From contig JBAVCK010000126.1 of the NCBI GenBank assembly GCA_049586635.1, forward strand, positions 1-49,785: 49,785 nucleotides of DNA. Direction: 5' to 3'. Below the pieces are notes generated by a model. It was not told the DNA's origin and made no database searches. It was given only the letters and a program-made list of their open reading frames with translations. Within the stretch, counting starts at the first letter, position 1, and each line of letters starts with the position of its first letter. The position numbers and the translations under genes were made by a program. Positions 5,274-43,270 of the stretch are shown in pieces. The stretch is from Candidatus Bathyarchaeia archaeon (GTDB lineage Archaea; Thermoproteota; Bathyarchaeia; 40CM-2-53-6).

Positions 5274-5333
5274 GGCGCTATTGAGACTCTCAAGACAGCC
5301 TAATCCATCTCGACTTCTTCTCTTGGTCCGTCC

Positions 5334-5987
5334 TCACCGCCTTAGGGCGCTTTCCGGTGGACGCTCTAACACGGCTAGGAAGTCTCTCATCGAATCAACT
5401 GACAGGTTCAAAGACCCGATCTTCAATTCCTCTCCATCCTTCACACCGTCTTCCAGCAGCTTTCTGCTCAACTCATACGGTCCCGCCAAATAGACAGAGC
5501 GCATCCCCTTCCTATCTTCTCTCCAAACGGTAACGCCTTCTTGCTCCATTCGGAACATGTCGTAAGCCTCTCCGGACAGATGCCGTTCGTATTCACCGCT
5601 CGGTAACCTCGTAAAGTCTCCCATATGCACTTCCAAGGAGTTCGGTAATGACGGGCTGGGCGTCGCAGGGATTGTTACTGGCGGCGCTAAATTCTCGGGG
5701 TAGAGTTTTGGCTGTGCAAAGGGGACGGTCAATTTTGCTTCTTCTACATCCGGCTGGGGCGAAGTGGGCTGCGTTCCTGTTGGCGCCGCCACTGAACCAG
5801 GTCTAAGCAAGTAATAGAGTGAAATGAAAACTGCCACGGAGCCTCCCACGAGAAAGTTGGCGCCTAGGAACTGCGAAGTTAGCTCCCGTGCTCCTGGGAA
5901 TCCGGCGGCAACTAAACTGAAACCATAATCAATCAACACAAAGCCGCATGCGACGCCAAGGATCTCGTAGAACCGCCGTGAAACCAA
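5334..5987 (-). CDS. hypothetical membrane-anchored protein with Pro-rich linker
   Basis: 217 aa: two N-terminal TM helices, a P/T/S-rich linker, and a charged C-terminal domain. No family recognised. Confidence 0.5.
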   Translation of the reverse strand: MVSRRFYEILGVACGFVLIDYGFSLVAAGFPGARELTSQFLGANFLVGGSVAVFISLYYLLRPGSVAAPTGTQPTSPQPDVEEAKLTVPFAQPKLYPENLAPPVTIPATPSPSLPNSLEVHMGDFTRLPSGEYERHLSGEAYDMFRMEQEGVTVWREDRKGMRSVYLAGPYELSRKLLEDGVKDGEELKIGSLNLSVDSMRDFLAVLERPPESALRR

Positions 5988-6084
5988 GGATATTCGAACT
6001 CTGCGAAAAGTAAACGGTAGCTAATAAGAATAATAAGAATACGATTTCTGTTGCCTGAATCGATTCACAAGTCTTTACCGAAAA

Positions 6085-6450
6085 ATGCCAAGCGCCTTCG
6101 TCGCCATTTTCGGGATGCCAGCCGTATTTGGGCTGACGCTTGGCCAATTCATAGCAAACCTTGGCGTCGAAGCATCACCGATAGCCACGTTATCCCCGTT
6201 ATTCTCGTTCATCGGCCTCCTAGTAATCTACTATGCACGGAGGTTTACTACCCTTGCAGGTTGCCTAGCCCACGTAGCCATAACGTCGCTTTGGCTGACC
6301 TACCTTTTGCCAATTGTTTCAGGGATTTCAACAATTGAAGCCGGGTACTCAGCATTCATCTGCCAATTTATCGCGGTCATGATAGGATATTGTGCATATG
6401 TCTTAGTATGCAAAACTATTCGCACCAGCCCCCCACCCGCAAGTAATTGA
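6085..6450 (+). CDS. hypothetical small membrane protein
   Basis: 121-aa ORF with about 4 hydrophobic helices. A competing ORF at 6051-6338 in another frame looks non-proteinaceous. Confidence 0.45.
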   Translation: MPSAFVAIFGMPAVFGLTLGQFIANLGVEASPIATLSPLFSFIGLLVIYYARRFTTLAGCLAHVAITSLWLTYLLPIVSGISTIEAGYSAFICQFIAVMIGYCAYVLVCKTIRTSPPPASN

Positions 6451-6720
6451 AGCCCCAGTCTCCTTCGTGCGCATCCTTACATCGCCATCTGAGGTTACTT
6501 GCAGAACTCATCTATGTCGTGTAAGAGCGATGTCTGTTCTCCCTTGTCCAATCCTCTGCTCACCAGTATGACAATTGGACTATTGGATTCAACCGACCGC
6601 CAATATAGTTTCTGTACAACCTACGTCGGAGTTGTTTTCACTTCCACGCCGCGAACTAGCTCTTTACATATGACTTCAGCAGCTCTCACGAGCAGCGCTC
6701 ACAGTTTGGGTGCAAGCATA

Positions 6721-7791
6721 ATGGCAAAGATTCGCGTTGCAATCGTTGGCGTGGGCAACTGCGCATCCTCCCTCGTCCAAGGCGTAGAATTCTACAAGGA
6801 TGCCAAGGAGAATCAGTTCATTCCGGGATTGATGCACGTTAGGTTAGGAGGCTATCACGTTCGTGACGTGACCTTCACCGCCGCCTTTGACATCGACAAG
6901 AACAAGGTTGGGAAGGATCTAGCCGACGCAATTTACACGAAACCCAACAACACGATAAAGTTCAGCAACGTCCCGAAGCTCGGCGTCGAGGTTCAACGAG
7001 GCATGACCCACGATGGGTTAGGAAAATACCTGAGCAAGGTCATAGAGAAACATCCGTCCCACACAGTAGACGTAAGCCACGTTTTGAAGGAAACTAAAAC
7101 GGATATTGTCCTCAATTATCTTCCCGTTGGCAGCGAGTTCGCCACGAAATGGTACGTGGAACAGGCGCTAGATGCAGGGTGCGCAGTCGTAAACTGCATC
7201 CCCGTCTTCATAGCAAGAGAAAAGCGATGGCAGCAAGTGTTTGAGAAACGCGGCCTTCCAATAATCGGCGATGATATCAAATCACAAGTCGGCGCAACAA
7301 TTGTTCATAGGGTTCTCACTCAACTCTTCAAAGACCGTGGTGTCAAACTTGAACGCACCATGCAGCTCAATGTGGGCGGAAACACAGATTTCCTCAACAT
7401 GCTGGAACGGGAGAGGCTGGAAAGTAAGAAGATCTCAAAGACCGGCGCAGTGACCTCAGTACTCGACTATAAGATGAATCCTGACAACGTGCACATTGGC
7501 CCGAGCGATTACGTGCCGTGGCTGTTGGATCGCAAATGGGCCTACATCCGCTTAGAGGGGACCACCTTCGGAAACGTCCCACTGAACATTGAAACCAAGC
7601 TTGAAGTCTGGGATTCCCCGAACAGCGCAGGCGTTGTGATCGATGCCATCAGATGCGCCAAGCTGGCATTGGATAGAGGCATCGCCGGAGCATTGAAGGC
7701 ACCTTCGGCGTACTTTATGAAATCTCCGCCAGAACAATACCCCGACGATGTAGCCAGACGCATGCTCGAAGAATTCATCCGAGGCAAATGA
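6721..7791 (+). CDS. ino1: myo-inositol-1-phosphate (inositol-3-phosphate) synthase, archaeal type
   Basis: [21 protein letters not shown] (NAD-binding) starts at the ATG at 6721. The conserved blocks [10 protein letters not shown] and SKKISK are present. The upstream 74 codons of the ORF are Ser/Thr-rich and unlikely to be coding. Confidence 0.9.
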
Positions 7792-7830
7792 AGCGGGACA
7801 AGAACTCTCGGCGTTTCTGTTGCGAAATAA

Positions 7831-8481
7831 TCATGCCATCAACGTCAGAGCGGCAGCCATAGCTCCGTGCTCAGCTGTCGCCCTATCGGGAGCGCTGCTT
7901 AGGACCACTACGTCACCCACCTCTGGGCTGAACAGTTTTCTCAAGTCCTGGAAGAGCGGATCATCTCGGCTCAGTCTCCAATCCTCAGTCTCACTCATCG
8001 GCATCGAGAATTCTCGACCCTGAAACACGAGTGTGCAAGCTCCTGTCGCTCCAGCCCGTATGGCGGCATCTCTCTGCTCGATACCCTTCTTCACGATACG
8101 CCCTACTCGCCTGACTGAGACAGCCGCACTGACTCTGTCGAGGGCAAACTGCTTCGCCTCTACTGGGGAGACCTTCGAAACTCTTGACCTCAGTGATTTG
8201 TAAAGTGGTGCTCCGCGCTTCGTCAACACGCACCCGCTTTTCGTGACTTTAATCAAGTTTGCTTGCATCAGATGCTTTATGATCGTACGTGCCGCACCCT
8301 CGCCAACCCCTAATCTCTTTGAAAGCTCAATTCTCCCGATCTGGCCTTCATCTCCAATTGTAAGAACTGCCTGAGCTACGTCAACATGCGTGAAGGCAGG
8401 AGCTGGCCCCGGGCTTGGTTGTCGCGAGAGCGTTTGCAGGATTTGAAGAATTCTCCCGGAGGCCATTCGCGGCGGCGCCAC
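7831..8481 (-). CDS. winged-helix DNA-binding protein (DUF4443-like)
   Basis: 216 aa. The N-terminal wHTH (IGRIELSKRLGVGEGAARTIIKHLMQANLIKV) is followed by a conserved C-terminal domain. Confidence 0.55.
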   Translation of the reverse strand: MAPPRMASGRILQILQTLSRQPSPGPAPAFTHVDVAQAVLTIGDEGQIGRIELSKRLGVGEGAARTIIKHLMQANLIKVTKSGCVLTKRGAPLYKSLRSRVSKVSPVEAKQFALDRVSAAVSVRRVGRIVKKGIEQRDAAIRAGATGACTLVFQGREFSMPMSETEDWRLSRDDPLFQDLRKLFSPEVGDVVVLSSAPDRATAEHGAMAAALTLMA

Positions 8482-8484
8482 TGA

Positions 8485-9675
8485 TTATGCCCTTGTTTTT
8501 GCTGGCAGCCTCTGTTTCGGCTTTTCACTGAGCTTCTTAATGCGCCGCTTGACTTCTTGCAAGGTCGTATCTTTCTTACAGTACGCTATGCGAACCTTTC
8601 GTCTGCCCAGCTCCTTGTCGTGGCAGAGAGCGCTCGCGGGCAACACGGCCAACCCAACAGTCTTCAGTAGGTAATCGGTGAATTGTTCCCCATCCTTGAA
8701 TTGGTCGGGGGCGTTCACCAGAATGTAGTAAGCACCCTCTGGCCTGTGGTATTGAAGCCCGGTTTCGTCGAGGATTTTCATCATCGTCCTGCGTTTTCTG
8801 TCATATGCTTCTGAAAGTCTATCGTAATACGAGGGTGAAAAGTTCAGAGCGGTGACGAGAGCTTCTTGCAACGGGGTTGGGGCACAGATAGTTAAATAAT
8901 CGTGAACCTTTCGCAGGGCATTCGTGAGTTTTGCTTCCGCTATGGCCCAACCAACCCTCCATCCTGTGACACTGTAAGTCTTTGATGCGCCACTAACAGT
9001 TACGGTTCGCTCATGCATATTGCCTAAAGATGCTAGGCTTACATGTTTCTTGCCATCGTAAATGATGTGCTCGTATATCTCGTCCGTAACAGCGATTGTC
9101 TTTTCTTCTTCGCATAAGTCCGCAATCAGTTTCAATTGCTCTGTGCTCATCACTTTTCCTGTTGGGTTGTTGGGAGTGTTTAGGACGAGCAGTTTGGGAC
9201 GGGTTGCCATGGCGTTCTTTAGAGCCTCTTCGTCGAGCAGCAGATTACGCCCCACGAAGGGGACGTAGGTTAGTTCGCAGTTCGCCATGATTGCGTCTGG
9301 AACATAGTTCTCATAGAAGGGGTCCGGGACCACGATTCGATCGCCGGGATTTGTTAAACCGAAAATTGCGGCGGCGAGGGCTTCGGTTGAACCGCATGTG
9401 ATTGTAACGTTCTTTTCGGGATCGGCCTCAATGCTGTTGTAATCCTTGACTTTGTTAGCAACTGCCTCCCTAAGGCCCTTGTACCCCCATGTGTTCGCAT
9501 ACTGGTTCGAGCCGTGTCTTATCGCTTCAACTGCTGCCTCGATCAGGTTTGGGGGTGCTGCGAAATCTGGCATGCCTTCGGCGAGGTTTATTGCCCCATA
9601 TTCATCACTCAAACTAGTCATTTCAGCGATAACAGACTCAGTGATGAAACCAAGCTTCGCCGCCAAGAAAGACAC
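8485..9675 (-). CDS. PLP-dependent aminotransferase, class I/II (aspartate/kynurenine aminotransferase-like)
   Basis: 396 aa with NTPNNPTG, SGASKTYSVTGWRVGW (PLP Lys) and an N-terminal INLAEGMPDF motif. Confidence 0.85.
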   Translation of the reverse strand: MSFLAAKLGFITESVIAEMTSLSDEYGAINLAEGMPDFAAPPNLIEAAVEAIRHGSNQYANTWGYKGLREAVANKVKDYNSIEADPEKNVTITCGSTEALAAAIFGLTNPGDRIVVPDPFYENYVPDAIMANCELTYVPFVGRNLLLDEEALKNAMATRPKLLVLNTPNNPTGKVMSTEQLKLIADLCEEEKTIAVTDEIYEHIIYDGKKHVSLASLGNMHERTVTVSGASKTYSVTGWRVGWAIAEAKLTNALRKVHDYLTICAPTPLQEALVTALNFSPSYYDRLSEAYDRKRRTMMKILDETGLQYHRPEGAYYILVNAPDQFKDGEQFTDYLLKTVGLAVLPASALCHDKELGRRKVRIAYCKKDTTLQEVKRRIKKLSEKPKQRLPAKTRA

Positions 9676-10219: not shown

Positions 10220-10321
10220 GGGGGCGTAGTCTAGCATGGTTATGATACGCGGCTTGGGCCCGCGTGAGTTGCCTAAACCGCAACCGCGAAGTCCTGGGTT
10301 CAAATCCCAGCGCCCCCACCA
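10220..10321 (+). tRNA. tRNA-Pro(UGG) with one 24-nt intron; genomically encoded CCA
   Basis: Acceptor GGGGGCG/CGCCCCC, anticodon arm CGCGG-CTTGGGC-CCGCG (anticodon TGG), T arm CTGGG-TTCAAAT-CCCAG, and 3' ACCA. There are 24 extra nt (hairpin GTTGC-CTAAACC-GCAAC) between the anticodon loop and the variable loop. The insertion position is ambiguous (38/39 to 43/44) because CCGCG is duplicated. Confidence 0.85.
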
Positions 10322-26385: not shown

Positions 26386-26495
26386 GCCGGGGTGGCTCAG
26401 CTGGTAGAGCGCCAGCCAGGCTTAAGGGACGAAACTCATAATCTGGAGAGCCGTGGGCCCAGAAGCCGCGGGTTCGAACCCCGCCCCCGGCACCA
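26386..26495 (+). tRNA. tRNA-Met (or Ile2) (CAU) with two non-canonical introns; encoded CCA
   Basis: GCCGGGG TG GCTC AGCTGGTA GAGC G CCAG[18-nt insert]A CTCATAA TCTGG, then a 21-nt stretch where 5 nt are expected (about 16-nt insert with a GGGCCC hairpin), then GCGGG TTCGAAC CCCGC CCCCGGC A CCA. Confidence 0.8.
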
Positions 26496-35264: not shown

Positions 35265-35373
35265 TGGAGCCCCGGGCGGGATTTGAACCCGCGACCTTCG
35301 CCTCTTTGTCTGTTCGTTACCAAGGCGGCGCTTTTGGCGTTGTGTTGTTTCTACCAGGCTGAGCCACCGGGGC
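35265..35373 (-). tRNA. tRNA-Thr(GGU) with two introns (D-arm and anticodon loop); encoded CCA
   Basis: Minus-strand read: GCCCCGG TG GCTC AGCCTGGTA G[18-nt insert]AGC G CCGCC TTGGTAA [14-nt insert] GGCGA AGGTC GCGGG TTCAAAT CCCGC CCGGGGC T CCA. There is one C-A mismatch at 27:43. The anticodon assignment is less certain than for the other tRNAs. Confidence 0.7.
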
Positions 35374-35773
35374 CTTCGAGCGGGCTGCCCTATACACAAC
35401 TTCGCTAAATATGTGCTGAGAAGACACCCGACATTTCTGAAGAGAAGTCGTGCGGACTAACGACAAGGTTGATGGAACCTTAGTCAGTTATTGAGAACTT
35501 TGTCTCCGAAGCATAACTCGCGCGGGCCACTAGGCGATCGGACAATCTTCTGAGCAGCAAGCGTTCTAAACGGAACTACATGGCGTCATTAGTGAAAAAC
35601 CCCTATTACAGGTGTACCAGTCACAAGAGAACGAGGTGCCTAGACCCAGTAACAACGTTTTGCGTTAAAAAATGGTATTATTGCGCTTTTATCATTCACC
35701 TATTTGACAATAGTTAAGCAAACGCTTAAGTGCGTTGACGACGGCTGCGTGTTTCCGAGTTAAATTAACTAAA

Positions 35774-35790: not shown

Positions 35791-36576
35791 ATGGTCAGAA
35801 AATGCCCAGCATGCGGCTACAACAACCGCGACGACGCAGCATTCTGCTCAAGCTGTGGCTCATCACTCGCAGGCGCAGCAGGACCCACACTCAAACCAGT
35901 CCCTTCAGTCCGAGTTGTAACACCTGTCAGCCCTGGCAACCCGATCAGGGTTCCAGCACCTGGCCAATGTTACTATCACCCTAGCCTACCCGCCGTCTAT
36001 GTTTGCAACCGTTGTGGAAGAGCGATCTGCCGCGACGACTCGAAGGCATACATGGACCTTGTACTCTGTCCGCAATGTTACCAAGGCGTTGTACCGATGG
36101 TAGCAGCTCCACAACAGCAAATGCCATCGATGCAAATGCCACCTTATCAACCGATGCCAGGACCCGCCTACGGTCCACCCCCAATGGCAGCGCCGGCTCC
36201 CTTCATGGGACCATTGCCCCCGCTTTACCAACCTGCTCCCCCGAGAGCTCTCTGGGGCTTCATACTAGCAATGATCGCAGGCATACTTGTGATACTTAAC
36301 GCAGCAGCTTTGCTTTCACCGAGTTTCTACACTCTATGGACAGGCATCTTCTTCTGGTTGCCAGCTGTCGGCCCGGCAAGTCTAACGTTCGCTATAGGAG
36401 CGATAATCGGGCTCATACTGGTAATCGGATCAATACTAATGCTACTAGGATACGGAACCATAGGCAGCATAGTTGTCTTTCCACTTGCTGTCTTGAGCTT
36501 GCTGATCGGCGGTGGCTTCGTGGCCGGATTCGTTCTGGGCGTGCTGGGTGGAATACTCGGCATGCTAGGACGCTAG
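35791..36576 (+). CDS. membrane-anchored zinc-finger protein: RanBP2/NZF-like zinc ribbon + B-box-2-like finger + Pro/Met-rich linker + 3-4 TM helices (candidate E3/adaptor)
   Basis: CPACGYNNRDDAAFCSSCG matches C-x2-C-x3-N-x6-C-x2-C. CYYHPSLPAVYVCNRCGRAICRDD...CPQC matches C-x2-H-x8-C-x2-C-x4-C-x2-D-x9-C-x2-C. The linker is QQQMPSMQMPPYQPMPGPAYGPPPMAAPAPFMGPLPPLYQPAPP. The C-terminal half is hydrophobic and Gly-rich. Confidence 0.75.
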   Translation: MVRKCPACGYNNRDDAAFCSSCGSSLAGAAGPTLKPVPSVRVVTPVSPGNPIRVPAPGQCYYHPSLPAVYVCNRCGRAICRDDSKAYMDLVLCPQCYQGVVPMVAAPQQQMPSMQMPPYQPMPGPAYGPPPMAAPAPFMGPLPPLYQPAPPRALWGFILAMIAGILVILNAAALLSPSFYTLWTGIFFWLPAVGPASLTFAIGAIIGLILVIGSILMLLGYGTIGSIVVFPLAVLSLLIGGGFVAGFVLGVLGGILGMLGR

Positions 36577-36631
36577 CGGCACAATAATCATTCCCAATTT
36601 TTTGTCTCCTTCCGGTTTCTTGGTGTAGGCT

Positions 36632-37774
36632 TTGTCCTACGTGAGCATAGCGAAGCCCGTTAACGATAAAATAGTCCGGGCTGCGCGCACGACTAAGAAT
36701 GAAATAATCGGCGTACTGATAGGACGGTTTCAGGACAATACCATAATAATCGAAGACTCGGTCACCGGTGAATCCGCCGCCGAGCCGCACCGAGCAATCC
36801 TCTCATCGAAAGCGTTGGCGGAGATTGCGGACGGAATTGTGACCGGCCGGATAAAGGGCAATATTGTCGGCTGGTACCACTCACACACCCACGGCGGGCT
36901 CTTCTTCTCGCAAACAGACATCGCAACCCAATCAATACTCCAACAGTTTTCAACACTCATTTCTGGAATGGTCGTGGACGCCTCGACCGGCGATGTGGGC
37001 TTCTTTCGCGTGGAGCCTTCGAGTGGGCAAGCCGTCCGCATATCTGCTGAAAGAATCACAGTCTTCACCGTGCGGTCGGCGGCGGTTCGGCCCGAGGCAA
37101 GAGCGGAGCCCCCTGCTGCGATACCAACGGTCGAAGTGAAGCAGTCTAATTCCCGGATACGCATACTTGGAATCTTCGGAGCCGTTGGTCCTATTGTCTA
37201 TATCGCCGCCGTCTTGATTGGCGGTTTCTTATGGCCTGGGTACTCACACTATAGCCAGACAGTGAGCACGCTCATCTCATCGCGTGCTCCTAACCAAGTC
37301 ATAATGGTGCCTCTTTTCGCCTTCTACAATGTTTGCTTGATCCTTCTGGCGGTTGGTCTATACTATGGAATCCAGAAAGAAGTCAGACACATTTGGGGTT
37401 CGGCGTTCCTAGTCGCCGCAGGCGCTGGGGGCCTGGTTCTCTTTCTTTTCCCGCAAGATTATACCGCCGGTCCTCCGTTCGCTGTATTGGACTTGCTGCA
37501 CTTGGTCATCACAGGAATTATTGCATTCTTCTCGCTTGCAGCGATTGCTCTCTTTTGGCTACAATTCCGTCTCGACCCACGTTGGAAAGGCTACGACCGT
37601 TTCAGTATCGTAATGCTACCAATCGCGCTTACCCTAGGTGTCCTCGGCCTCATCTCGATTTCCGCCCCATACGCAGGCCTTGCCGATAGATTGTCCATTG
37701 GATCATTACTGTTATGGATTGAGGTCGCTTCAACTGGACTCATCATTCGTGGTTCAAAGGGTTCCGCACCGTAG
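36632..37774 (+). CDS. JAMM/MPN+ (Rpn11-like) metalloisopeptidase fused to a polytopic DUF998-like membrane domain
   Basis: Has the catalytic Glu context KNEIIGVLIG and an exact JAMM motif HSHTHGGLFFSQTD (H-x-H-x7-S-x2-D, nt 36878-36919). The C-terminal about 200 aa hold about 6 TM helices and the PGYSHYSQTVSTL signature of DUF998. TTG start (GTG at 36641 is an alternative). Confidence 0.85.
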   Translation: MSYVSIAKPVNDKIVRAARTTKNEIIGVLIGRFQDNTIIIEDSVTGESAAEPHRAILSSKALAEIADGIVTGRIKGNIVGWYHSHTHGGLFFSQTDIATQSILQQFSTLISGMVVDASTGDVGFFRVEPSSGQAVRISAERITVFTVRSAAVRPEARAEPPAAIPTVEVKQSNSRIRILGIFGAVGPIVYIAAVLIGGFLWPGYSHYSQTVSTLISSRAPNQVIMVPLFAFYNVCLILLAVGLYYGIQKEVRHIWGSAFLVAAGAGGLVLFLFPQDYTAGPPFAVLDLLHLVITGIIAFFSLAAIALFWLQFRLDPRWKGYDRFSIVMLPIALTLGVLGLISISAPYAGLADRLSIGSLLLWIEVASTGLIIRGSKGSAP

Positions 37775-37787
37775 CTGGCTGAATAGA

Positions 37788-37976
37788 ATGAATAAGGAGG
37801 CCACGACGTTAGACGAAGGCTCCGGAACAGAAGGTTACCACATCGGCCTCCCAGGCTCACAATGCATACCATGCACCCAACAAGAGCCACCCGGGGCGGG
37901 GACCTTGCCTTCACGCACCATCCGATTCATAGCAAGACAGTTTAAGCTCATCTGCGAAAATGAAGGCCCAGCATGA
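37788..37976 (+). CDS. possible 62-aa ORF translationally coupled to the Ubl gene
   Basis: The ATG at 37788 comes 14 nt after the JAMM stop. Its TGA stop overlaps the ATG at 37973 (ATGA). The sequence MNKEATTLDEGSGTEGYHIGLPGSQCIPCTQQEPPGAGTLPSRTIRFIARQFKLICENEGPA has no recognisable family. Confidence 0.25.
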   Translation: MNKEATTLDEGSGTEGYHIGLPGSQCIPCTQQEPPGAGTLPSRTIRFIARQFKLICENEGPA

Positions 37977-38239
37977 GTGGAGGTGAAACACGACAAATGA
38001 AACTGTTCGTCCAAGCGCCCATCGGCCCCCAGACTGGCCTAGCGGAAATCGATGTAATTCCAGACCATACTGTTGCGGAAATAAAGCAACAGGTCTGCCA
38101 ATCGTTCAACGTTGACCCGAGCACCGTGGCTCTCATGTATGGAGGCGCGATATTAGACGAGGGTACCACCGTTGCAAGATTAGGCATCCCTGAAAATGCT
38201 CAGCTTGCGCTCATGCCATACAACATCATCGGCGGGTAG
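37973..38239 (+). CDS. ubiquitin-like beta-grasp protein ending in Gly-Gly-stop
   Basis: MKLFVQAP...DHTVAEIKQQVCQSFNVDPSTVALMYGGAILDEGTTVARLGIPENAQLALMPYNIIGG-stop follows the ubiquitin pattern (MQIFVK..., L.F.G..L.D..TL). The likely true start is the ATG at 37997 (80 aa), which has GGAGGTGA 10 nt upstream. The GG codons are at 38231-38236. Confidence 0.85.
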   Translation: MSGGETRQMKLFVQAPIGPQTGLAEIDVIPDHTVAEIKQQVCQSFNVDPSTVALMYGGAILDEGTTVARLGIPENAQLALMPYNIIGG

Positions 38240-38250
38240 GCTAGCTAGAT

Positions 38251-38844
38251 TTGGATGTCTCGTTGCTGCTGAAGGAAAAGAGCCTGCTCAACCATCAGTT
38301 CCCTACAGTCACTGCAATCGACGACCCACCCACTCAATTCGAAGGCCTCATTCGCTGCGAGAAAGGGGAAGTCATGAAGCTGTCCGAGAAGGGAGTCTGG
38401 CCCTTCACTGATTACACGAACTGGCACCGCTTCAGACTTGATATTCCCCCAGAATACCCGTTAAAGCCACCAGTGGCTACCTGGCTCACGGAAATCTCCC
38501 ATCCAAACATAGTCCCGAAAATACCGAACGCCGTATGCGTTTCAATACTCGGAGAAAAATGGGACCCTAGGCTGAAACTCGTATCTGTCGTCAACGCGTT
38601 ACATTACCTTCTGACCGATCCAAACCCTCAGAGTGTTTTTGATAACCCCCGGGCGCTCAAAGCAGCAGACGTTTGTCGTTCGTACGGATTTCCCAAGATG
38701 ACGAAAGCTAGGCCAACGAATAAGGAAGCCGACGATATTGTCCGCTTCAACGTAGTCCCTGTTCCCGAATTAGCCAAATCTTCAGGCGCAGATGACATAG
38801 TTAGGTTCGATATCCCTGGACGGGTACGCCGAGCGTCTTCTTGA
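38251..38844 (+). CDS. ubiquitin-conjugating enzyme (UBC-fold E2) with C-terminal repeat tail
   Basis: FRLDIPPEYPLKPPVATWLTEISHPNIVPKIPNAVCVSILGEKWDP carries YP.kPP, an HPN triad (38500-38508), the catalytic Cys (38536-38538) and a downstream W.P. TTG start 11 nt after the Ubl stop. The tail has two ADDIVRF[ND] copies. Confidence 0.85.
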   Translation: MDVSLLLKEKSLLNHQFPTVTAIDDPPTQFEGLIRCEKGEVMKLSEKGVWPFTDYTNWHRFRLDIPPEYPLKPPVATWLTEISHPNIVPKIPNAVCVSILGEKWDPRLKLVSVVNALHYLLTDPNPQSVFDNPRALKAADVCRSYGFPKMTKARPTNKEADDIVRFNVVPVPELAKSSGADDIVRFDIPGRVRRASS

Positions 38845-40085
38845 TGCGCATAAGAGCCTCGCTCCCTTCCTACAAAGAGCTCGAAGTGGAGCTGAACCCA
38901 AACAAGACGGTGAAGGATCTCAAGCAAATAATTTGCAAGAAACTAAGCATTGAACCAGAGCTCACCAATCTGCTGGCAGGCGGCAAACTCCTCCCGGAAC
39001 ATTGCCGACTGTCGAAAATCAAGGGCAAAGTAATCGTTGACTACCTTTGGGCGCGACACTTGCTCGTTTGGGGGCCGGAAGGACAGCGGAGGATAAGGGA
39101 TTCATCGGTGCTACTTGCTGGGGCCGGCGCCATCGGGAACGAGGTAGCCAAAAACCTAGCCATGTTGGGAGTCGGCAAAATCTTCATTGTAGACCGGGAT
39201 ATTGTCGAAATGTCTAATGTTAGCCGCATGGTGCTCTTTCAACAAAACGACCTGGGACGGAATAAGGCCGAGGTTCTGGCAGGAAACCTCCACAGAAAAT
39301 ACCCTTTCGTTCAGACGATTGCCTTCACGGGCGACCTCGAGAAGATGCCTCTGAAGTTCTATTTGGACTCGGACGTAGTTGTTTGCGGGCTCGACAATGT
39401 CGTCTCGCGAATTTTTCTAACCCAGATTTGCAGAAAATACTCCATCCCGTTAGTTGATGGGGGAATCACGGGGCTGAACGGTAGAGTGCATGTCTACCTA
39501 CCGCCCGACGATGCGTGCCCTGTATGTATGTTTCCGCCCAACCAGTACTCTAAGATCGTTGGCTTACGAAACCCATGTGATGCACCGTTGGAGCAGGAGG
39601 CCGTTCCATCCTTTGCAACGACGATTTCACTGGTCTCATCAATACTTGCCCAGGAAACGATCAAGCTGATCCTAGGGATGAAGGAATACCGGGCGAACGC
39701 AAAATGGCCTGGAACCAGCGGTCAACCCCTCAGATCTGTCTTGTTCATGGACTTGAAGAATAATCGGTACACCCCGATGGACTTGAAGCGTGGTGAGAAA
39801 TGCTTCGTGTGCGGAAAGGAAGGGACGACTAGAGAACCTGCCCAACGGGCTGATTTGCCGTTCGAAGTTGCCCATAGTTCGAAGGAGAGTTTGGAAGAAA
39901 CTATCCGCCATCACACCAAAATCAAGGCCGGAACATTGAACGTCCTAACGGAAACTTCTGAGGGTTCAAGACTACTTAACGGGCATTCAAGGCTAGGCAA
40001 GGGTATCGCCCGAGGGGACTATCTCAGAGTTCTCGGCGAAGACAAGAACGGAGAGTTTCACGAATCAATTCTAAGGCTGACATAG
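38841..40085 (+). CDS. E1-like ubiquitin-activating enzyme (ThiF/MoeB/UBA adenylation domain) with N-terminal ubiquitin-like domain
   Basis: LLAGAGAIGNEVAKNLAMLGVGKIFIVDRDIVEMSNVSRMVLF is the E1/ThiF nucleotide-binding signature. The CPVC...CFVC zinc pairs are present. N-terminal residues 2 to about 70 (ELEVELNPNKTVKDLKQIICKKLSIEPELTNLLAGGKLL) align by eye with ubiquitin ([37 protein letters not shown]). The start overlaps the E2 stop. Confidence 0.85.
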   Translation: MMRIRASLPSYKELEVELNPNKTVKDLKQIICKKLSIEPELTNLLAGGKLLPEHCRLSKIKGKVIVDYLWARHLLVWGPEGQRRIRDSSVLLAGAGAIGNEVAKNLAMLGVGKIFIVDRDIVEMSNVSRMVLFQQNDLGRNKAEVLAGNLHRKYPFVQTIAFTGDLEKMPLKFYLDSDVVVCGLDNVVSRIFLTQICRKYSIPLVDGGITGLNGRVHVYLPPDDACPVCMFPPNQYSKIVGLRNPCDAPLEQEAVPSFATTISLVSSILAQETIKLILGMKEYRANAKWPGTSGQPLRSVLFMDLKNNRYTPMDLKRGEKCFVCGKEGTTREPAQRADLPFEVAHSSKESLEETIRHHTKIKAGTLNVLTETSEGSRLLNGHSRLGKGIARGDYLRVLGEDKNGEFHESILRLT

Positions 40086-40208
40086 TGTGAATTTTGTAAT
40101 AACCGTGTCACACTTTTGCACGCGGATCATTCCAACTCCCATGGATTGCCACATTTCACGACGAATTGGGATGGACGAACCCCTTCCGCCCTAAGCAACC
40201 GTTAAGAA

Positions 40209-40643
40209 ATGCTTGATGCCAATGGATGTCGGGATTTCAGCATGTCAATGTGTCCGGCTTGCGGCTCACCCAACTCTGGGGATGCAAAGTACTGTTTCAA
40301 ATGCGGTGCGATGGTTTCCCGTGGACCACCTGTGAAGGTTGAAGTGCGATCGCCCTTAACTCCCTCCATGAAACCAACTCCGGTTGCTCCAATCGCTCCG
40401 TCAACGTACGTTTCGAGACAAGGCCAAAGACAGGGAAGCTGCTACTATCACTCTGAGCTCCCATCATCGTTCATATGTTCAAGATGCGGCAGGTCGATTT
40501 GCGCAGCCTGTAACAGGCAATACGGGGTTCTAAGCCTGTGCACAGAATGTTACTGGGGATTAGCCCCCAAACTAGGCGCTCCACTCGGACAATATGCGGT
40601 TGCGAGTGAGCAGCAGGCCCGTTCCCCGTTTTCGCTCTTTTAG
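40209..40643 (+). CDS. soluble zinc-finger protein: RanBP2/NZF-like zinc ribbon + B-box-2-like cross-brace finger (candidate E3)
   Basis: CPACGSPNSGDAKYCFKCG matches C-x2-C-x3-N-x6-C-x2-C. CYYHSELPSSFICSRCGRSICAACNRQYGVLSLCTECY matches C-x2-H-x8-C-x2-C-x4-C-x2-C-x9-C-x2-C (8 ligands). It is a paralogue of the N-terminal half of 35791-36576. The true start is probably the MSMC Met (about 40242). Confidence 0.75.
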   Translation: MLDANGCRDFSMSMCPACGSPNSGDAKYCFKCGAMVSRGPPVKVEVRSPLTPSMKPTPVAPIAPSTYVSRQGQRQGSCYYHSELPSSFICSRCGRSICAACNRQYGVLSLCTECYWGLAPKLGAPLGQYAVASEQQARSPFSLF

Positions 40644-42292
40644 GTTAGGCGCCCCTGATTCTTCAGCCGCTCCGTTATTTCCTTGAGTTCGCCCACAGGA
40701 ATTCCGAGATCCGATGAAGCCTTGCTTAAGGATATGACACCTTCATGTTTCACGATGTAATCGTATACTTTTTCGTCCGATGAAGCCGCTGGCATTTCCA
40801 ACGGCGCGCCGCACTTTTCACAAAATGCTCCTTTCGGCACAAGATTCCCACACGTACTGCAAGCCTGCGTTGCAGCTACGAGTGTGGGTGAGCCTCCAGG
40901 TGGGTGGAATTTTTGCGCTTCGCGATTGAAAATACCCCGCCTATACGCGAGGACGATTCCAACGCTAAGAATGGTTGCTAGTCCTCCACCTCCTAGAATT
41001 GCGACCAGTGGAAAGTAGTCAAAGCTCCACTGGGCTTCAACAATATATGGCCTGTCGACGGTCAGATTCCATGAATCACCAGTTCTCTGGAGTACCCCCG
41101 TTGGTGGGTCGAGCCGCAAACCGGTGAGAGCGTATGTTATCGGCCAACTTTGTTCGCCTGCTACAACAGTAATCTTCGCGGACGCCCCGCGGTCGTACCA
41201 TCCCGAACCGGAAACTGAACCATGCGAAGAACGGACGTCCACGTAGTACTGTGTATTGTACGACAGGGTGACTGTACGCGGTTGATCCATCACCACCGTG
41301 TACGATGGGGTCGGGAAAGATGATCCGTTGTCAACCCAACCAACGAAACGAAGGCGTTCGACGGAACTCAAATCGAGGGTCAAGGGAGCCGGCCCAAGTT
41401 GAACGTTTGCGTTAGCACTATACCAGCCCGCATCCGATTCATTGTATTTGGTTGAAATGGTAGCGGGATCATACTGAACGGCAAGTAGGTATTGGGCAAG
41501 GAAATTGGCCTTAACTGTATGCGGCCTGTCCATCACTATGTGGCCAGTCAGCGACTGACCCGTGTAATCGCCGCTCCAGTGATCAAACTTCAGCCGCGTA
41601 TTGCCAGTTGCCGTGACAATCGCATTTACTGAGAAAGTAGCCGGACTCCCTGAATCATACCACACAGAACCGGCAAGACTCGAGACGTTGGGTGGGTCCG
41701 ATTCAACCGTCAAGAAAAACTGTGTCTTCCAGTTCGCTATGGCACTTTTTGCTCCGGTCATCAGGATGCTATTCGAACTCGTATCGGTGCCAGAGGCATC
41801 TCCTGACCACCCAGCAAATACTTGCCGCGTCCCCTGGCCTTCGTCAATCTGACGATCTTGAACAGTTGCCTGTGCTGAGGCACCGGAGTTGTACCATCCC
41901 TGGCCGGTCGGAGTACTGTAGGACGACTGTACAGTAAGATAGTACTGCGCCGTGTAGGTGAAAACGTGGTTGCCTGACGCGCTGAAACCCCATGATGCTT
42001 CTTGCTCATAGTATCGGGTGCCGTTTGCACCGATGCTGCTTGGGATGTAGGAGTCTACCGTAATCACATGGCCTATGTTTGAAGTTGCGAAACTGAATGA
42101 GCTTGTCTGGCCACCGACCATCGTCGTATTGAATGACCCGTCGACGTAGACATTTGTGCTAATTGTGGTGGGGAGGCCAGCGATTGTTATTGAAACCGCG
42201 TAAGTTGCCTGCGCACGAGCAGTTGGAATGAAAAGGCCAGCGATGACTATGCAGATGAGCAGCGTCAAAAGTGGCCGCGCTGAGATGGGCAA
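40640..42292 (-). CDS. single-pass membrane protein: extracellular repeated beta-domains, cytoplasmic zinc ribbon + winged-helix domain
   Basis: Has a signal peptide and four or more repeats of Q(Y/F)(Y/F)L.V.S...G.GWY..G(A/S)... (InlB-B-repeat-like). These are followed by a TM helix (VAILGGGGLATILSVGIVLAY), CSTCGNLVPKGAFCEKCG, and then EKVYDYIVKHEGVISLSKASSDLGIPVGELKEITERLKNQGRL (wHTH). Confidence 0.65.
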   Translation of the reverse strand: MPISARPLLTLLICIVIAGLFIPTARAQATYAVSITIAGLPTTISTNVYVDGSFNTTMVGGQTSSFSFATSNIGHVITVDSYIPSSIGANGTRYYEQEASWGFSASGNHVFTYTAQYYLTVQSSYSTPTGQGWYNSGASAQATVQDRQIDEGQGTRQVFAGWSGDASGTDTSSNSILMTGAKSAIANWKTQFFLTVESDPPNVSSLAGSVWYDSGSPATFSVNAIVTATGNTRLKFDHWSGDYTGQSLTGHIVMDRPHTVKANFLAQYLLAVQYDPATISTKYNESDAGWYSANANVQLGPAPLTLDLSSVERLRFVGWVDNGSSFPTPSYTVVMDQPRTVTLSYNTQYYVDVRSSHGSVSGSGWYDRGASAKITVVAGEQSWPITYALTGLRLDPPTGVLQRTGDSWNLTVDRPYIVEAQWSFDYFPLVAILGGGGLATILSVGIVLAYRRGIFNREAQKFHPPGGSPTLVAATQACSTCGNLVPKGAFCEKCGAPLEMPAASSDEKVYDYIVKHEGVISLSKASSDLGIPVGELKEITERLKNQGRLT

Positions 42293-42961: not shown

Positions 42962-43270
42962 ATGGTATCTACCCCATACACTAGAGGCAGGAGCCGCGAA
43001 TACCAGGTCCTACGCTTGTTGAGGGAGGAAGGCTGGTTTTGCAGTAGAAGCGCAGCCTCTCACGGTCCAGTTGATATTTTCGCTGGCCGCGGAGGGCGCA
43101 TGTTGATGGTTCAAGTGAAAAGCGGAGAAGGCAGAGCTACAGACGAAGACCGTAAGACGCTGAAGCTATGGGGAGAGGCTTTCCACGGAACAGTCGAAAT
43201 ATGGAGGTTTAGGAAAGGCAAACCACTTGACCGTGAAACTGTGTATGAGTGCGATGGTCAGAACGCCTAG
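42962..43270 (+). CDS. PD-(D/E)xK nuclease, Holliday-junction-resolvase (Hjc)-like
   Basis: 102 aa. RGRSREYQVLRLLREEGWFCSRSAASHGPVDIFAGRGGRMLMVQVKS follows the Hjc pattern G...E...L...G...R...S.G..D.iA....l.v(E)vK, but with Gln in place of the usual Glu. Confidence 0.5.
   Translation: MVSTPYTRGRSREYQVLRLLREEGWFCSRSAASHGPVDIFAGRGGRMLMVQVKSGEGRATDEDRKTLKLWGEAFHGTVEIWRFRKGKPLDRETVYECDGQNA

Follow-up and report, generated by a model that had tools for sequence, protein, structure and literature searches.

A cluster of six same-strand genes in the chromosome of a soil archaeon of the class Bathyarchaeia very probably encodes a working, vertically inherited conjugation system for a ubiquitin-like protein (Ubl), which is of the eukaryotic E1–E2 type, homologous to the system of Caldiarchaeum and organized around the membrane. 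The cluster occupies positions 35791–40643 of the window (the whole 49,785-nucleotide stretch of DNA analysed) and encodes, in order, a zinc-finger membrane protein (ZnTM), a JAMM protease carrying a DUF998 domain, the Ubl, an E2, an E1 and a soluble ZnTM paralog (ZnB). All open reading frame (ORF) positions given in an initial annotation of this DNA were reproduced. That annotation counted six or seven co-directional genes; six are present, but the candidate seventh, a conserved neighbour at 40640–42292, lies on the opposite strand. Its reading of the locus as a ubiquitylation operon is borne out by Pfam matches above curated cut-offs for all four core proteins, and the two assignments on which it staked that reading, those of the E2 and the Ubl, both held. 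These matches are far beyond chance, as judged by the Pfam scores and by an arrangement that recurs in 53 independent assemblies.

The Ubl, E2 and E1 proteins

The Ubl gene (37973–38239, + strand) encodes a beta-grasp protein whose 88-codon ORF, as first described, terminates in IIGG-TAG and carries no C-terminal pro-peptide. Many orthologous ORFs are exactly 80 amino acids long, and thus the true start is probably M9 (ATG at 37997; MKLFVQ...), with GGAGGTGA standing upstream. The protein belongs to the ubiquitin family (PF00240; 40.4 bits versus a cut-off of 25.4), matches ubiquitin and Caldiarchaeum ubiquitin (CsUb; 2MQJ and 6FJ7) in the PDB, and has no ThiS or MoaD match in Pfam even at E ≤ 1. 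An alignment from 30 loci is gapless over 80 residues, with the GG-stop in 30 of 30; K2 and K30 are present throughout, except for K2R in three sequences. With identities of 73–99% across loci, the highest of any cluster protein, the Ubl is, judged from this alignment, under extreme purifying selection.

The E2 gene (38251–38844, + strand; 197 amino acids) encodes a UBC-fold protein that exceeds the Pfam UQ_con cut-off (61.9 bits versus 27). Its active-site residues H84-P85-N86 and C96 (nucleotides 38500–38538), which are accompanied by a WxP motif, are invariant in all 14 aligned homologs. The best PDB relatives in profile searches are eukaryotic UBC12, Rad6 and UbcH5 (E of about 1e-13), and NCBI automatic annotation already labels the protein ‘ubiquitin-conjugating enzyme E2’. 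Family-specific features include a conserved insert, RCEKGEV (residues 35–41), and a C-terminal tail in which DDIVRF occurs twice (residues 161–166 and 181–186).

The Ubl, E2 and E1 genes are translationally coupled, as the initial annotation had noted. Only 11 nucleotides separate the last base of the Ubl stop codon (38239) from the TTG start of E2 (38251), and the E2 stop codon (TGA, 38842–38844) overlaps the start of E1. Comparison with homologs makes ATG 38844, which forms a TGATG junction, a more likely E1 start than the alternative TTG at 38841.

The E1 gene (38841–40085, + strand; 414 amino acids) encodes a ThiF/UBA-type protein with an N-terminal beta-grasp Ubl domain (residues 1–67) that lacks GG and scores just below the Pfam ubiquitin cut-off (25.2 versus 25.4 bits; E = 1.4e-5). 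The adenylation domain (residues 69–330; ThiF, 176.4 bits versus 28.1) contains the GxGxxG motif and CxxC zinc pairs reported in the annotation, which read GAGAIG (residues 94–99), CPVC (226–229) and CFVC (321–324), as well as the motif DRDxVExSNxSR. A flexible crossover loop (residues 236–248), disordered in the AF2 model, holds an invariant Cys246. Neither an inserted catalytic-Cys domain nor a rhodanese domain is found in this protein, and the alpha/beta domain at its C terminus (residues 335–414) takes the position of a UFD, although no resemblance to known families of UFD or E2-binding domains could be detected. The best PDB matches are UBA1, UBA7 and UBA6 (1e-37 to 1e-21), followed by ThiF (3e-21) and MoeB (2e-15). 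In the AF2 model (pLDDT 84.7, pTM 0.85) the N-terminal beta-grasp is visible, and the top Foldseek matches are to UBA3 over roughly 426 aligned columns.

These assignments bear on whether the cluster instead serves to thiolate cofactors or tRNA, as a sulfur-carrier or SAMP/Urm1-type system that pairs a ThiS/MoaD-like protein with a MoeB/ThiF-like E1 and whose ‘E2’ has been misread. In NCBIfam, the ThiF, MoeB and UbaA models also match the E1, all far below their cut-offs, and JGI labels its homologs ‘molybdopterin/thiamine biosynthesis adenylyltransferase’. However, the reading is contradicted by the profile searches that place the E2 in UQ_con, with its invariant HPN and Cys, and the Ubl in PF00240. 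The higher scores of UBA1, UBA7 and UBA6 over ThiF and MoeB, the missing rhodanese domain and the lack of thiamine or molybdopterin genes in the neighbourhood inspected also oppose it, and we consider it highly improbable.

A further alternative is an antiviral system resembling bacterial Bil or CBASS Cap2/Cap3, in which Ubl, E2, E1 and JAB act together against phage, transplanted into archaea. All four protein types of BilABCD are present, and the adenylation domain of the E1 matches the PADLOC models ‘E1-E2’ (Cap2; up to 5e-18) and BilD (4e-8), but these matches are limited to the generic adenylation fold, the JAMM protein matches only marginally (7e-4), and the E2, Ubl, ZnTM and ZnB have no PADLOC match. 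Moreover, the cluster keeps a fixed chromosomal site in dozens of species, unlike a mobile defence island, among housekeeping genes (acyl-CoA dehydrogenase, glyoxalase, an Hjc-like protein, thioredoxin and DHDPS). Together with the strong constraint on the Ubl and the fact that, outside its own family, the E2 is closest among named proteins to eukaryotic E2s, this makes a defence origin improbable, and a eukaryotic-type conjugation system remains the favoured explanation.

Membrane anchoring and zinc-finger proteins

The second gene (36632–37774, + strand) encodes a predicted JAMM/MPN+ deubiquitinase of the Rpn11-like type. The exact H-x-H-x7-S-x2-D motif claimed for it can be read directly as HSHTHGGLFFSQTD (residues 83–96), which supplies H83, H85, S93 and D96, and the upstream catalytic Glu is E24 in NEIIG. 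The JAMM domain (residues 1 to about 125; JAB, 42.6 bits versus 22.5) is most similar in the PDB to the Rpn11-like protein of C. subterraneum (6FJV, E = 4.7e-12), followed by CSN5, RPN11 and BRCC36. It is joined to a DUF998 domain (74.4 bits versus 30) with six transmembrane segments at residues of about 178–372, as located, like those of ZnTM, by a simple hydropathy scan rather than a dedicated predictor. The JAMM domain is assumed to face the cytosol. Most relatives carry one transmembrane helix and roughly 330 residues of extracellular repeats instead of DUF998, so that across lineages the anchor has been replaced while the membrane location was kept. This agrees with the earlier proposal of a membrane-associated variant. 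In one sub-clade the cluster lacks the JAMM domain, which suggests that deconjugation there comes from elsewhere or is absent.

ZnTM (35791–36576, + strand; 261 amino acids) begins with a zinc ribbon (C5-x2-C-x10-C-x2-C22), which a short linker strand (V-R-V-V) joins to a B-box-like binuclear domain (C60-x2-H-x8-C-x2-C-x4-C-x2-D-x9-C-x2-C96). After a Pro-rich linker, a C-terminal hydrophobic domain contains about three or four transmembrane segments (residues of about 157–255). Matches to Zn_Ribbon_1 (30.6 bits) and DZR (29.7 bits) both exceed their cut-offs, and the zf-B_box match is sub-threshold (E = 0.009). The gene is syntenic across related loci, and its ligand pattern is kept in orthologs, the sixth ligand swapping between D and C.

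ZnB (40209–40643, + strand; 144 amino acids), whose conserved start is probably M12 (40242), repeats this layout without the membrane domain. Its zinc ribbon (C15-x2-C-x3-N-x6-C-x2-C32) has RanBP2/NZF-type spacing, and a linker with the conserved strand PVKVEV leads to the B-box-like domain (C78-x2-H-x8-C-x2-C-x4-C-x2-C-x9-C-x2-C114). All 12 metal ligands are invariant in the family, including the eight of the B-box-like domain. Zn_Ribbon_1 is matched at 26 bits and zf-B_box at 18.8 bits, below the 24.1 cut-off; zf-B_box is matched by 29 of 36 family members (best 6e-5) and Zn_ribbon_RanBP by nine. Both domains are modelled by AF2 with pLDDT values of 78–89. Foldseek returned nothing significant for the ZnB model (E > 0.3), and the resemblance of the model to TRABID NZF1 and to RanBP2 fingers is of low significance.

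Both zinc-finger proteins are candidate E3s or adaptors, membrane-anchored in the case of ZnTM, but they could also be receptors, substrates or regulators. The initial annotation held that every component of a ubiquitin cascade is encoded here. This is true of the E1, E2, Ubl and JAMM protease, but Pfam detects no RING or U-box in either zinc-finger protein or elsewhere in the cluster, and the zinc-finger proteins are only putative E3s. With RING and U-box domains missing, a B-box match that falls short of the cut-off and no significant Foldseek result, these proteins may not be E3s. It is possible, if rather unlikely, that the cascade is real but its E2 works E3-free, with ZnTM and ZnB serving as NZF-like Ubl receptors, substrates or membrane scaffolds. 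Some eukaryotic B-boxes bind E2s, which speaks against this alternative, as do the related cross-brace folds of B-boxes and RINGs, the location of ZnB exactly where Caldiarchaeum has its RING E3 gene, and the replacement of the ubiquitin-binding T-F pair of NZF by G-K/S/Y in the ZnB family. In its favour are the RanBP2/NZF-like features of ZnB and the zinc ribbons fused to JAMM (locus L044) or to both E2 and JAMM (L055) in relatives, which parallel NZF fusions in some eukaryotic deubiquitinases. Bacterial Cap2 and Bil enzymes also modify targets without an E3. The Caldiarchaeum E2 modifies itself without one (PMC5654768), and prokaryotic B-boxes have been described not as E3s but as partners in membrane-protein folding, stability and proteolysis (PMC4506424).

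The conserved convergent neighbour (40640–42292, − strand; 550 amino acids) is probably a functional partner of the cluster, which it adjoins in most loci whose contigs extend far enough downstream; its stop codon overlaps that of ZnB by 4 nucleotides. The protein starts with a signal or transmembrane segment, continues with extracellular InlB-B-repeat (Flg_new_2) domains (Pfam, 43.3 bits) and a transmembrane helix (residues 430–448), and ends in a cytosolic tail that contains a zinc ribbon (E = 7e-4 when the tail is searched alone) and a winged-helix-like C terminus.

Distribution and proposed pathway

Synteny of the whole ZnTM-JAMM-Ubl-E2-E1-ZnB cluster extends to 53 species-level genomes, with E2 identity down to 56% and the longest of the contigs reaching 2.36 Mb. 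All are Bathyarchaeia except for four contigs filed under bacterial bins. The initial statement that such operons are known from only a handful of lineages is therefore an understatement, given that this version is widespread in Bathyarchaeia. This recurrence also argues against eukaryotic contamination or recent horizontal transfer from a eukaryote, which we regard as scarcely credible. Eukaryotic proteins are the top named matches for the E2, E1 and Ubl, but over the core the identity reaches only about 30–45%, the E1 is a compact single-domain protein, and an indel is common to the E2s of this cluster and of Caldiarchaeum. Furthermore, the genes are intron-less and translationally coupled, use TTG starts, and are surrounded by archaeal genes and intron-containing archaeal tRNAs.

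For the vertically inherited system that we favour, sequence analysis and structural models show which families the proteins belong to, their catalytic residues and domain layouts, where membrane segments lie, and that gene order and sequences are conserved; the thioester chemistry of the following pathway is inferred. The 80-residue Ubl would be produced already mature, ending in GG. The E1, probably a homodimer like ThiF and MoeB, would adenylate the terminal Gly at its GAGAIG/Arg-finger/Asp site and then hold the Ubl as a thioester, presumably on Cys246 of the flexible crossover loop. Its C-terminal domain, N-terminal Ubl domain or both may recruit the E2, possibly aided by the DDIVRF pair in the E2 tail, and the Ubl would pass to Cys96, with Asn86 of the HPN motif aiding attack by a substrate lysine. 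Soluble ZnB and membrane-embedded ZnTM could deliver E2~Ubl to targets, from which the membrane-anchored JAMM protease would take the Ubl off again. The likeliest targets are proteins associated with the membrane or envelope, modified for quality control, turnover or signalling. Inspection of the neighbourhood revealed no proteasome, Cdc48 or ESCRT genes, and thus the neighbours give no indication of the fate of conjugates.

Comparison with known systems

In the Caldiarchaeum operon, a divergent rpn11 lies beside genes for Ub (Csub1474), E2 (Csub1475), E1 (Csub1476) and the RING protein srfp (PMC5654768). The Bathyarchaeia cluster has the same Ub-E2-E1-zinc-finger order, with ZnB in the position of srfp, so the core gene order given in the initial annotation agrees with the published locus. 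The E2 and the E1 each share 35% identity with their Caldiarchaeum counterparts, which have been reconstituted biochemically, and the two E2s share the unusual HPN-x9-C spacing. Among solved structures, the best relatives of the cluster proteins are eukaryotic E2s, UBA1 and UBA3, and Caldiarchaeum Rpn11 and ubiquitin, rather than sulfur-carrier or bacterial defence proteins. We found no published description of a membrane-tethered Bathyarchaeia ubiquitin cluster in the literature searched. It is unusual that the tag-removing protease and one zinc-finger partner are built into the membrane. Several features set the cluster apart from known operons. Its Ubl requires no processing; its E1 carries a Ubl domain at the N terminus and lacks an inserted Cys domain; no RING is present, both zinc-finger proteins instead combining a zinc ribbon with a B-box-like eight-ligand domain; and its JAMM protease is invariably held at the membrane, with different lineages using one or the other of two unrelated anchors.

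Layout and distribution of the cluster

Six co-directional genes on the + strand make up the cluster in the ORF table. These encode the membrane zinc-finger protein ZnTM (35791–36576, 261 aa), a JAMM protease fused to DUF998 (36632–37774, 380 aa), the ubiquitin-family modifier Ubl (37973–38239, 88 aa), the UBC-fold protein E2 (38251–38844, 197 aa), the ThiF/UBA-type protein E1 (38841–40085, 414 aa) and ZnB (40209–40643, 144 aa), a soluble paralogue of ZnTM. Only 11 nt separate the Ubl stop from the E2 start, and the TGA of E2 overlaps the E1 start in the context cTTGATGc. Because E1 homologues begin at ATG, the E2/E1 junction is a TGATG overlap. A gene for a 550-aa membrane protein with InlB-B repeats (40640–42292, − strand) is convergent with ZnB, such that the two stops overlap by 4 nt. 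Beyond it lies the next conserved neighbour in most related loci, a gene for a small Hjc-like protein of Holliday junction resolvase fold (42962–43270, + strand). The initial annotation described the cluster as a complete eukaryote-type ubiquitylation operon, and each of the motifs that it named (the Ubl IIGG-stop, the HPN and Cys of E2, the GxGxxG and CxxC pairs of E1, and the JAMM motif) is present where it was placed.

The neighbourhood consists of ordinary archaeal housekeeping genes and intron-containing tRNAs. Two tRNA genes on the + strand, at 10220–10318 and 26386–26492 (99 and 107 nt), are matched by Rfam and not by ARAGORN, and their length suggests archaeal introns. A third, tRNA-like gene (35267–35374, − strand) lies ahead of the cluster, in a 1.6-kb stretch poor in ORFs. 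Its acceptor stem spans 7 bp (GCCCCGG/CCGGGGC), its T-arm (GCGGGTTCAAATCCCGC) is perfect, and it also has a D-arm, an encoded CCA and about 40 extra internal bases. This element, which is missed by ARAGORN (even with intron options) and by the Rfam tRNA model, probably represents a tRNA whose intron is non-canonical.

In a distribution scan of prokaryotes, with each species represented by one genome, an E2 alignment and two strict peptide patterns served as the query and yielded at least 53 loci, a number that is a lower bound because the patterns are strict. All but four are labelled Bathyarchaeia or Bathyarchaeota (one just ‘archaeon’), mainly from soil, peat and sediment, and one locus resides on a 2.36-Mb contig with 96% identity. 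The remaining four (L007, L008, L016 and L019) are complete archaeal clusters in bacterial metagenome-assembled genomes (MAGs) labelled Acidiferrales, Nitrospiraceae, Acidoferrum and Methylomirabilota. Binning errors are suspected for these contigs because an archaeal cluster resides on them, and the most likely explanation is contamination in public assemblies. BLAST searches of the ORFs reveal that the gene order ZnTM–JAMM–Ubl–E2–E1–ZnB, followed by the opposite-strand membrane protein and the Hjc-like gene, is kept in loci whose E2 is as little as 56% identical. The genomic context, the gene coupling and this distribution rule out eukaryotic contamination and a recent transfer.

Two related, uncharacterised archaeal operons have in common with the window the order Ubl–E2–E1 and the presence of zinc-ribbon and membrane proteins. 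The first, a simpler operon amid ribosomal-protein genes (L055, ‘Thermoplasmata archaeon’, GCA_029932465.1, 6749–9752), encodes an 80-aa Ubl that ends in IIGG and is almost the same protein as that of the window, an E2 that carries a C-terminal zinc ribbon and is 49% identical to the window E2, and a minimal E1 of 255 aa that has neither the N-terminal Ubl domain nor the C-terminal domain. It also encodes a two-transmembrane zinc-ribbon protein and a soluble JAMM whose zinc ribbons are C-terminal. The second (L056, a Logan SRR14699983 contig, 5135–8847) includes a single-pass membrane protein whose zinc finger is AN1/B-box-like, a 97-aa Ubl lacking a terminal GG, an E2, and an E1 that has an N-terminal Ubl domain, as in the window, and a zinc ribbon inserted in its adenylation domain.

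Ubl, E2 and E1

The Ubl protein matches the Pfam ubiquitin family PF00240 with 40.4 bits (cut-off 25.4), and its PDB matches are ubiquitin and Caldiarchaeum subterraneum ubiquitin (CsUb; 2MQJ and 6FJ7), whereas no match to the ThiS/MoaD Pfam families is found at E ≤ 1. It is the best-conserved protein of the cluster, with 73–99% identity across loci and a gapless 80-aa alignment of 30 loci. The ORF ends in IIGG-stop in the window and in GG-stop in all 30 aligned loci, and thus Ubl is predicted to be made in its mature form, with no need for processing.

The E2 protein matches Pfam UQ_con (PF00179) with 61.9 bits against a cut-off of 27, over profile positions 47–122 of 140, and residues H84, P85, N86, C96, W104 and P106 are invariant in the aligned homologues. 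A profile of the family retrieves the eukaryotic E2 structures UBC12, Rad6 and UbcH5 from the PDB at about 1e-13. These profile matches place E2 in the UBC family and Ubl apart from the sulfur carriers, the opposite of the two search outcomes that the initial annotation had named as refuting its operon assignment.

The window E2 and E1 both show 35% identity to their Caldiarchaeum counterparts CsE2 and CsE1, whose sequences were taken from the supplementary alignments of PMC5654768. Nine residues separate HPN from the catalytic Cys in both the window E2 and CsE2, versus seven in eukaryotic E2s, and this shared indel (HPN-x9-Cys) argues for a common archaeal E2 lineage, as far as sequence comparison can tell. 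The window E2 also carries a conserved family-specific insert, RCEKGEV, and two conserved, strand-like DDIVRF repeats in its tail (38731–38748 and 38791–38808, + strand). In these repeats hydrophobic residues in the order hydrophobic–hydrophobic–x–hydrophobic follow acidic residues, so that they resemble SUMO-interaction-type motifs, although any such role is speculative.

The E2 family is isolated among known proteins. Across 1.84 billion representative proteins, scanned in full, only 16 representatives were recovered at E ≤ 1e-30, one of which (49% identity) comes from MAGs labelled Thermoplasmata. Beyond a few unnamed archaeal-sized proteins, the next-best named matches are E2s of plants and animals. 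Homologues are deposited under the name ‘MAG: ubiquitin-conjugating enzyme E2 [Candidatus Bathyarchaeia archaeon]’.

The E1 protein matches Pfam ThiF with 176.4 bits (cut-off 28.1). Its homologues invariably contain GAGAIG, DRDxVExSNxSR and C246 (in NPC[DE]), and its zinc pairs are CPVC and CFVC. The closest PDB matches are UBA1, UBA7 and UBA6 (1e-37 to 1e-21), ahead of ThiF (3e-21) and MoeB (2e-15), and matches to the NCBIfam models for sulfur-carrier E1s (ThiF, MoeB and UbaA) all fall far below their cut-offs. An AF2 model is confident (pLDDT 84.7, pTM 0.85). In the model, amino acids 1–67 form an N-terminal beta-grasp that precedes the ThiF-like adenylation domain. This N-terminal domain scores 25.2 bits with the Pfam ubiquitin profile, just under the 25.4-bit cut-off (E 1.4e-5), and PF00240 is listed in the precomputed Pfam column for most E1 homologues. 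A disordered crossover loop (amino acids 236–248) holds the invariant Cys246, whose position aligns with the Cys marked as catalytic in CsE1, and we infer that Cys246 is the catalytic residue.

The E1 C terminus is predicted to form an 80-aa alpha/beta domain (amino acids 335–414) with a strand order that is not that of a textbook beta-grasp. A C-terminal UFD that recruits E2 is typical of the E1 proteins of clusters I and II (PMC5654768). Foldseek places UBA3, which has a UFD, first for the E1 model, with an alignment that extends over the whole protein (roughly 426 columns), followed by ThiF and MoeB (roughly 266 columns). Pfam finds no UFD or E2_bind match in this domain, including in ten isolated C-terminal domains.

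These features bear on two other readings of the locus. A sulfur-carrier system of the SAMP/Urm1/ThiS-MoaD kind is ruled out by the presence of E2, the membership of Ubl in PF00240, the absence of a rhodanese domain from E1 and the unrelated neighbouring genes. An anti-virus defence system of the Bil/CBASS type, for which one might take the PADLOC models that match the E1 adenylation domain (a generic match) and, marginally, JAMM, is unlikely, because no PADLOC model matches E2, Ubl or the zinc-finger proteins, and because the cluster keeps a fixed place among housekeeping genes across dozens of species (its context is fixed in 53 genomes).

The JAMM protein and the zinc-finger proteins

The JAMM protein matches Pfam JAB with 42.6 bits (cut-off 22.5). 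It contains the motif HSHTHGGLFFSQTD, an exact H-x-H-x7-S-x2-D, with the catalytic Glu upstream in NEIIG, and its best PDB match is Caldiarchaeum Rpn11 (6FJV, 4.7e-12), followed by CSN5, RPN11 and BRCC36. The same protein matches DUF998 (PF06197) with 74.4 bits against a cut-off of 30, over profile positions 2–181 of 184. By hydropathy scan, six transmembrane segments are predicted for the JAMM protein, several for ZnTM (in its C-terminal third) and none for Ubl, E2, E1 or ZnB.

The DUF998 anchor is found only in the sub-clade of the window (L001–L004). In most related genomes, the protein is 500–550 aa long, and its JAMM domain is joined through a Pro-rich linker to a single transmembrane helix, beyond which lie some 330 aa of DUF5980/NPCBM_assoc-like extracellular repeats. 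The anchor comparison took in the JAMM genes of the related loci L005, L009, L022, L030, L041 and L047, as well as loci L035, L042 and L049. Because two unrelated anchors occur on the same enzyme, the domain layouts imply selection for a membrane location of JAMM, and argue that this location would be part of its function. In one sub-clade the Pro-rich, transmembrane and extracellular protein is kept and the JAMM domain has been lost from the cluster, a loss that would be tolerable because Ubl needs no processing. In another related locus (L044, 4988–5812), the JAMM ORF opens with an in-frame zinc ribbon (CPTC...CSVC), a layout that parallels the fusions of NZF fingers to deubiquitinases in eukaryotes.

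The gene for the convergent membrane protein (40640–42292) is kept beside the cluster in almost every related genome. The extracellular part of the protein bears InlB-B repeats, and its cytosolic tail combines a zinc ribbon with a winged-helix-like end. The only PDB match of this tail, to the CdvB winged helix 2XVC, is non-significant (E 0.15).

ZnB and ZnTM have an identical cytosolic layout, in which a zinc ribbon, a linker and an eight-ligand domain follow one another. The ribbon (C-x2-C-x3-N-x6-C-x2-C) is spaced like a RanBP2/NZF finger, and the Pfam family of these fingers is weakly matched by 9 of the 36 ZnB family members. Zinc ribbons are also fused to JAMM in L044 and to both E2 and JAMM in L055, and these fusions would tie the ribbon module functionally to the pathway. 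The linkers are short, conserved and beta-strand-like, with the motifs PVKVEV in ZnB (40329–40346, + strand) and VRVV in ZnTM (35908–35919, + strand), both of which resemble SUMO-interaction-type motifs. Together with the DDIVRF repeats of E2, they may mediate binding of Ubl or of a Ubl domain.

The eight-ligand domain has the pattern C-x2-H-x8-C-x2-C-x4-C-x2-[C/D]-x9-C-x2-C. All ligands are invariant save the sixth, which is Cys or Asp by lineage, an alternation that would fit the behaviour of a true metal ligand. The B-box consensus is C-x2-H-x7-9-C-x2-[CDHE]-x4-C-x2-C-...-[HC]-x2-4-[HC]. Ligands 1–6 of the ZnB and ZnTM domain fit this pattern, and the last pair is C-x2-C after x9. Matches to zf-B_box (PF00643) are found for 29 of the 36 ZnB homologues (best 6e-5), and the window ZnB itself reaches 18.8 bits against a cut-off of 24.1. 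Both small domains of ZnB are confidently modelled by AF2 (pLDDT 78–89). A Foldseek search of this model against the PDB returns LIM, RanBP2/NZF, RING, FYVE and B-box structures, all non-significant at E > 0.3, and a sequence profile of the domain yields no B-box in the PDB and spurious C2H2, TraR and LIM matches. Thus, on the ligand pattern, ‘B-box-like’ appears to be the best label for the domain.

The gene at the position of the Caldiarchaeum small RING-finger protein (srfp) encodes ZnB, with its zinc ribbon and B-box-like domain. No RING or U-box is matched in the cluster, the sole weak match being to Prok-RING_1 in ZnTM (E 0.012). This leaves a serious alternative to a ligase function, namely that the zinc-finger proteins are receptors, scaffolds or substrates of Ubl. 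PMC4506424, citing Burroughs et al. 2011, connects B-boxes of prokaryotes with how membrane proteins fold, stay stable and are proteolysed, and places those of eukaryotes in the ubiquitin system. The cluster sits at the junction of these two themes.

Proposed mechanism and comparison with known systems

The most likely mechanism of the cluster is a standard ubiquitin cascade. E1 would adenylate Ubl and then take it as a thioester on Cys246, from which Ubl would pass to Cys96 of E2. Transfer to lysines would be assisted by the soluble ZnB and the membrane-embedded ZnTM, acting as E3 proteins, and the membrane-bound JAMM would reverse the modification. The proposed targets are membrane or envelope proteins. 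What the sequences and models show is the protein families, the key residues, the layout of the domains and their conservation, whereas the chemistry, the targets and an E3 role are inferred. Because its components are small and Ubl needs no processing, the system is suited to reconstitution in vitro.

A more far-reaching model is offered only tentatively, and we consider it rather doubtful. Bathyarchaeia, which belong to TACK and lie outside Asgard, might run a membrane-embedded ubiquitylation machine in which a B-box-like finger, and not a RING, serves as E3, and in which the state of the envelope or membrane is coupled to reversible ubiquitylation of membrane proteins by a transmembrane deubiquitinase whose extracellular or intramembrane module can be exchanged. 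If this model is correct, the cluster would be a prokaryotic counterpart of ubiquitin pathways of the ERAD-like or receptor-sorting kind, perhaps even their forerunner, and would give the first link between the role of prokaryotic B-boxes as partners of membrane proteases and that of eukaryotic B-boxes in ubiquitylation.

Archaeal ubiquitin systems that contain an E2 are central evidence on the origin of the eukaryotic ubiquitin network, and to our knowledge those studied so far come from Caldiarchaeum and Asgard. Bathyarchaeia are a very widespread archaeal group of soils and sediments. The cluster is of interest for how E3s diversified and how membrane-linked ubiquitylation arose. Should ZnTM and ZnB turn out to be ligases, RING would not be the sole ancestral E3 fold and membrane-linked ubiquitylation would predate eukaryotes.

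Among freely searchable papers we found no description of the Bathyarchaeia cluster, and mentions of Bathyarchaeota and ubiquitin there are generic, such as an M67 isopeptidase in Bathyarchaeota MAGs or ‘ESPs detected’. Bathyarchaeota are absent from the 2017 survey of archaeal ubiquitin clusters, including its supplement (PMC5654768). The proteins themselves are already public under automatic names, which limits their novelty.

Bacterial Bil (BilABCD) and CBASS Cap2–Cap3 systems (PMC10557695) likewise combine Ubl, E2, E1 and JAB genes in one operon, with similar E1 adenylation domains. They differ from the window, where E2 is nearer to eukaryotic E2s, the context is stable, and E2, Ubl and the zinc-finger proteins lie outside the defence models. 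Asgard systems (Spang 2015; Zaremba-Niedzwiedzka 2017; Hatano et al. 2022, PMC9192718) also contain eukaryotic-type ubiquitin, E1, E2 and JAMM genes, often clustered. They have small RING proteins and frequent ESCRT linkage, whereas no ESCRT genes lie near the window cluster.

With the eukaryotic cascade the cluster shares a UBC-fold E2 (HPN, Cys and WxP), a UBA-like adenylation domain, a JAMM of the MPN+ type and a modifier that ends in GG, and with TRIM-type B-box proteins it shares, by sequence, what looks like a B-box-like cross-brace ligand pattern. The last ligand pair is H-x2-4-H in eukaryotic B-boxes and C-x2-C after x9 here. Eukaryotic E1s have FCCH and SCCH domains, whereas the window E1 is compact and single-domain, lacks these and is presumably a homodimer, and the window cluster has no demonstrated proteasome link. 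The placement of conjugation and deconjugation components in the membrane recalls ERAD, a likeness that would be one of function, and a speculative one, not of homology.

The Caldiarchaeum operon was reportedly first described by Nunoura et al. in 2011. That system was reconstituted by Hennell James et al. 2017 (PMC5654768), and structures of its Rpn11 and ubiquitin were determined by Fuchs et al. 2018 (PMC6043591). The operon consists of Csub1473 (rpn11, divergent), Csub1474 (ubiquitin), Csub1475 (E2), Csub1476 (E1) and srfp (PMC5654768), and the core gene order that the initial annotation gave for it indeed agrees with Csub1474–1477 as published there. Both clusters have the order ubiquitin–E2–E1–zinc-finger protein with an adjacent Rpn11-like JAMM, and an E1 with zinc CxxC pairs and an extra C-terminal domain. 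However, Caldiarchaeum encodes a RING-H2 srfp, whereas the window encodes ZnB and a membrane-embedded paralogue that heads the cluster. CsRpn11 is soluble and divergently transcribed, whereas the window JAMM gene runs in the direction of the others and its product carries a fused membrane domain. CsUb carries a 9-aa pro-peptide that is cut off by Rpn11 (PMC5654768), in contrast to the mature window Ubl. The window E1 has the N-terminal Ubl domain and does not have the roughly 50 residues that CsE1 carries as an insertion behind its catalytic Cys, and the window E2 differs by its family-specific insert and two-DDIVRF tail. The window cluster shows that Bathyarchaeia hold a third version of the archaeal ubiquitin system, abundant and strongly conserved, in which the E3 position is B-box-like rather than RING and deconjugation is placed at the membrane.
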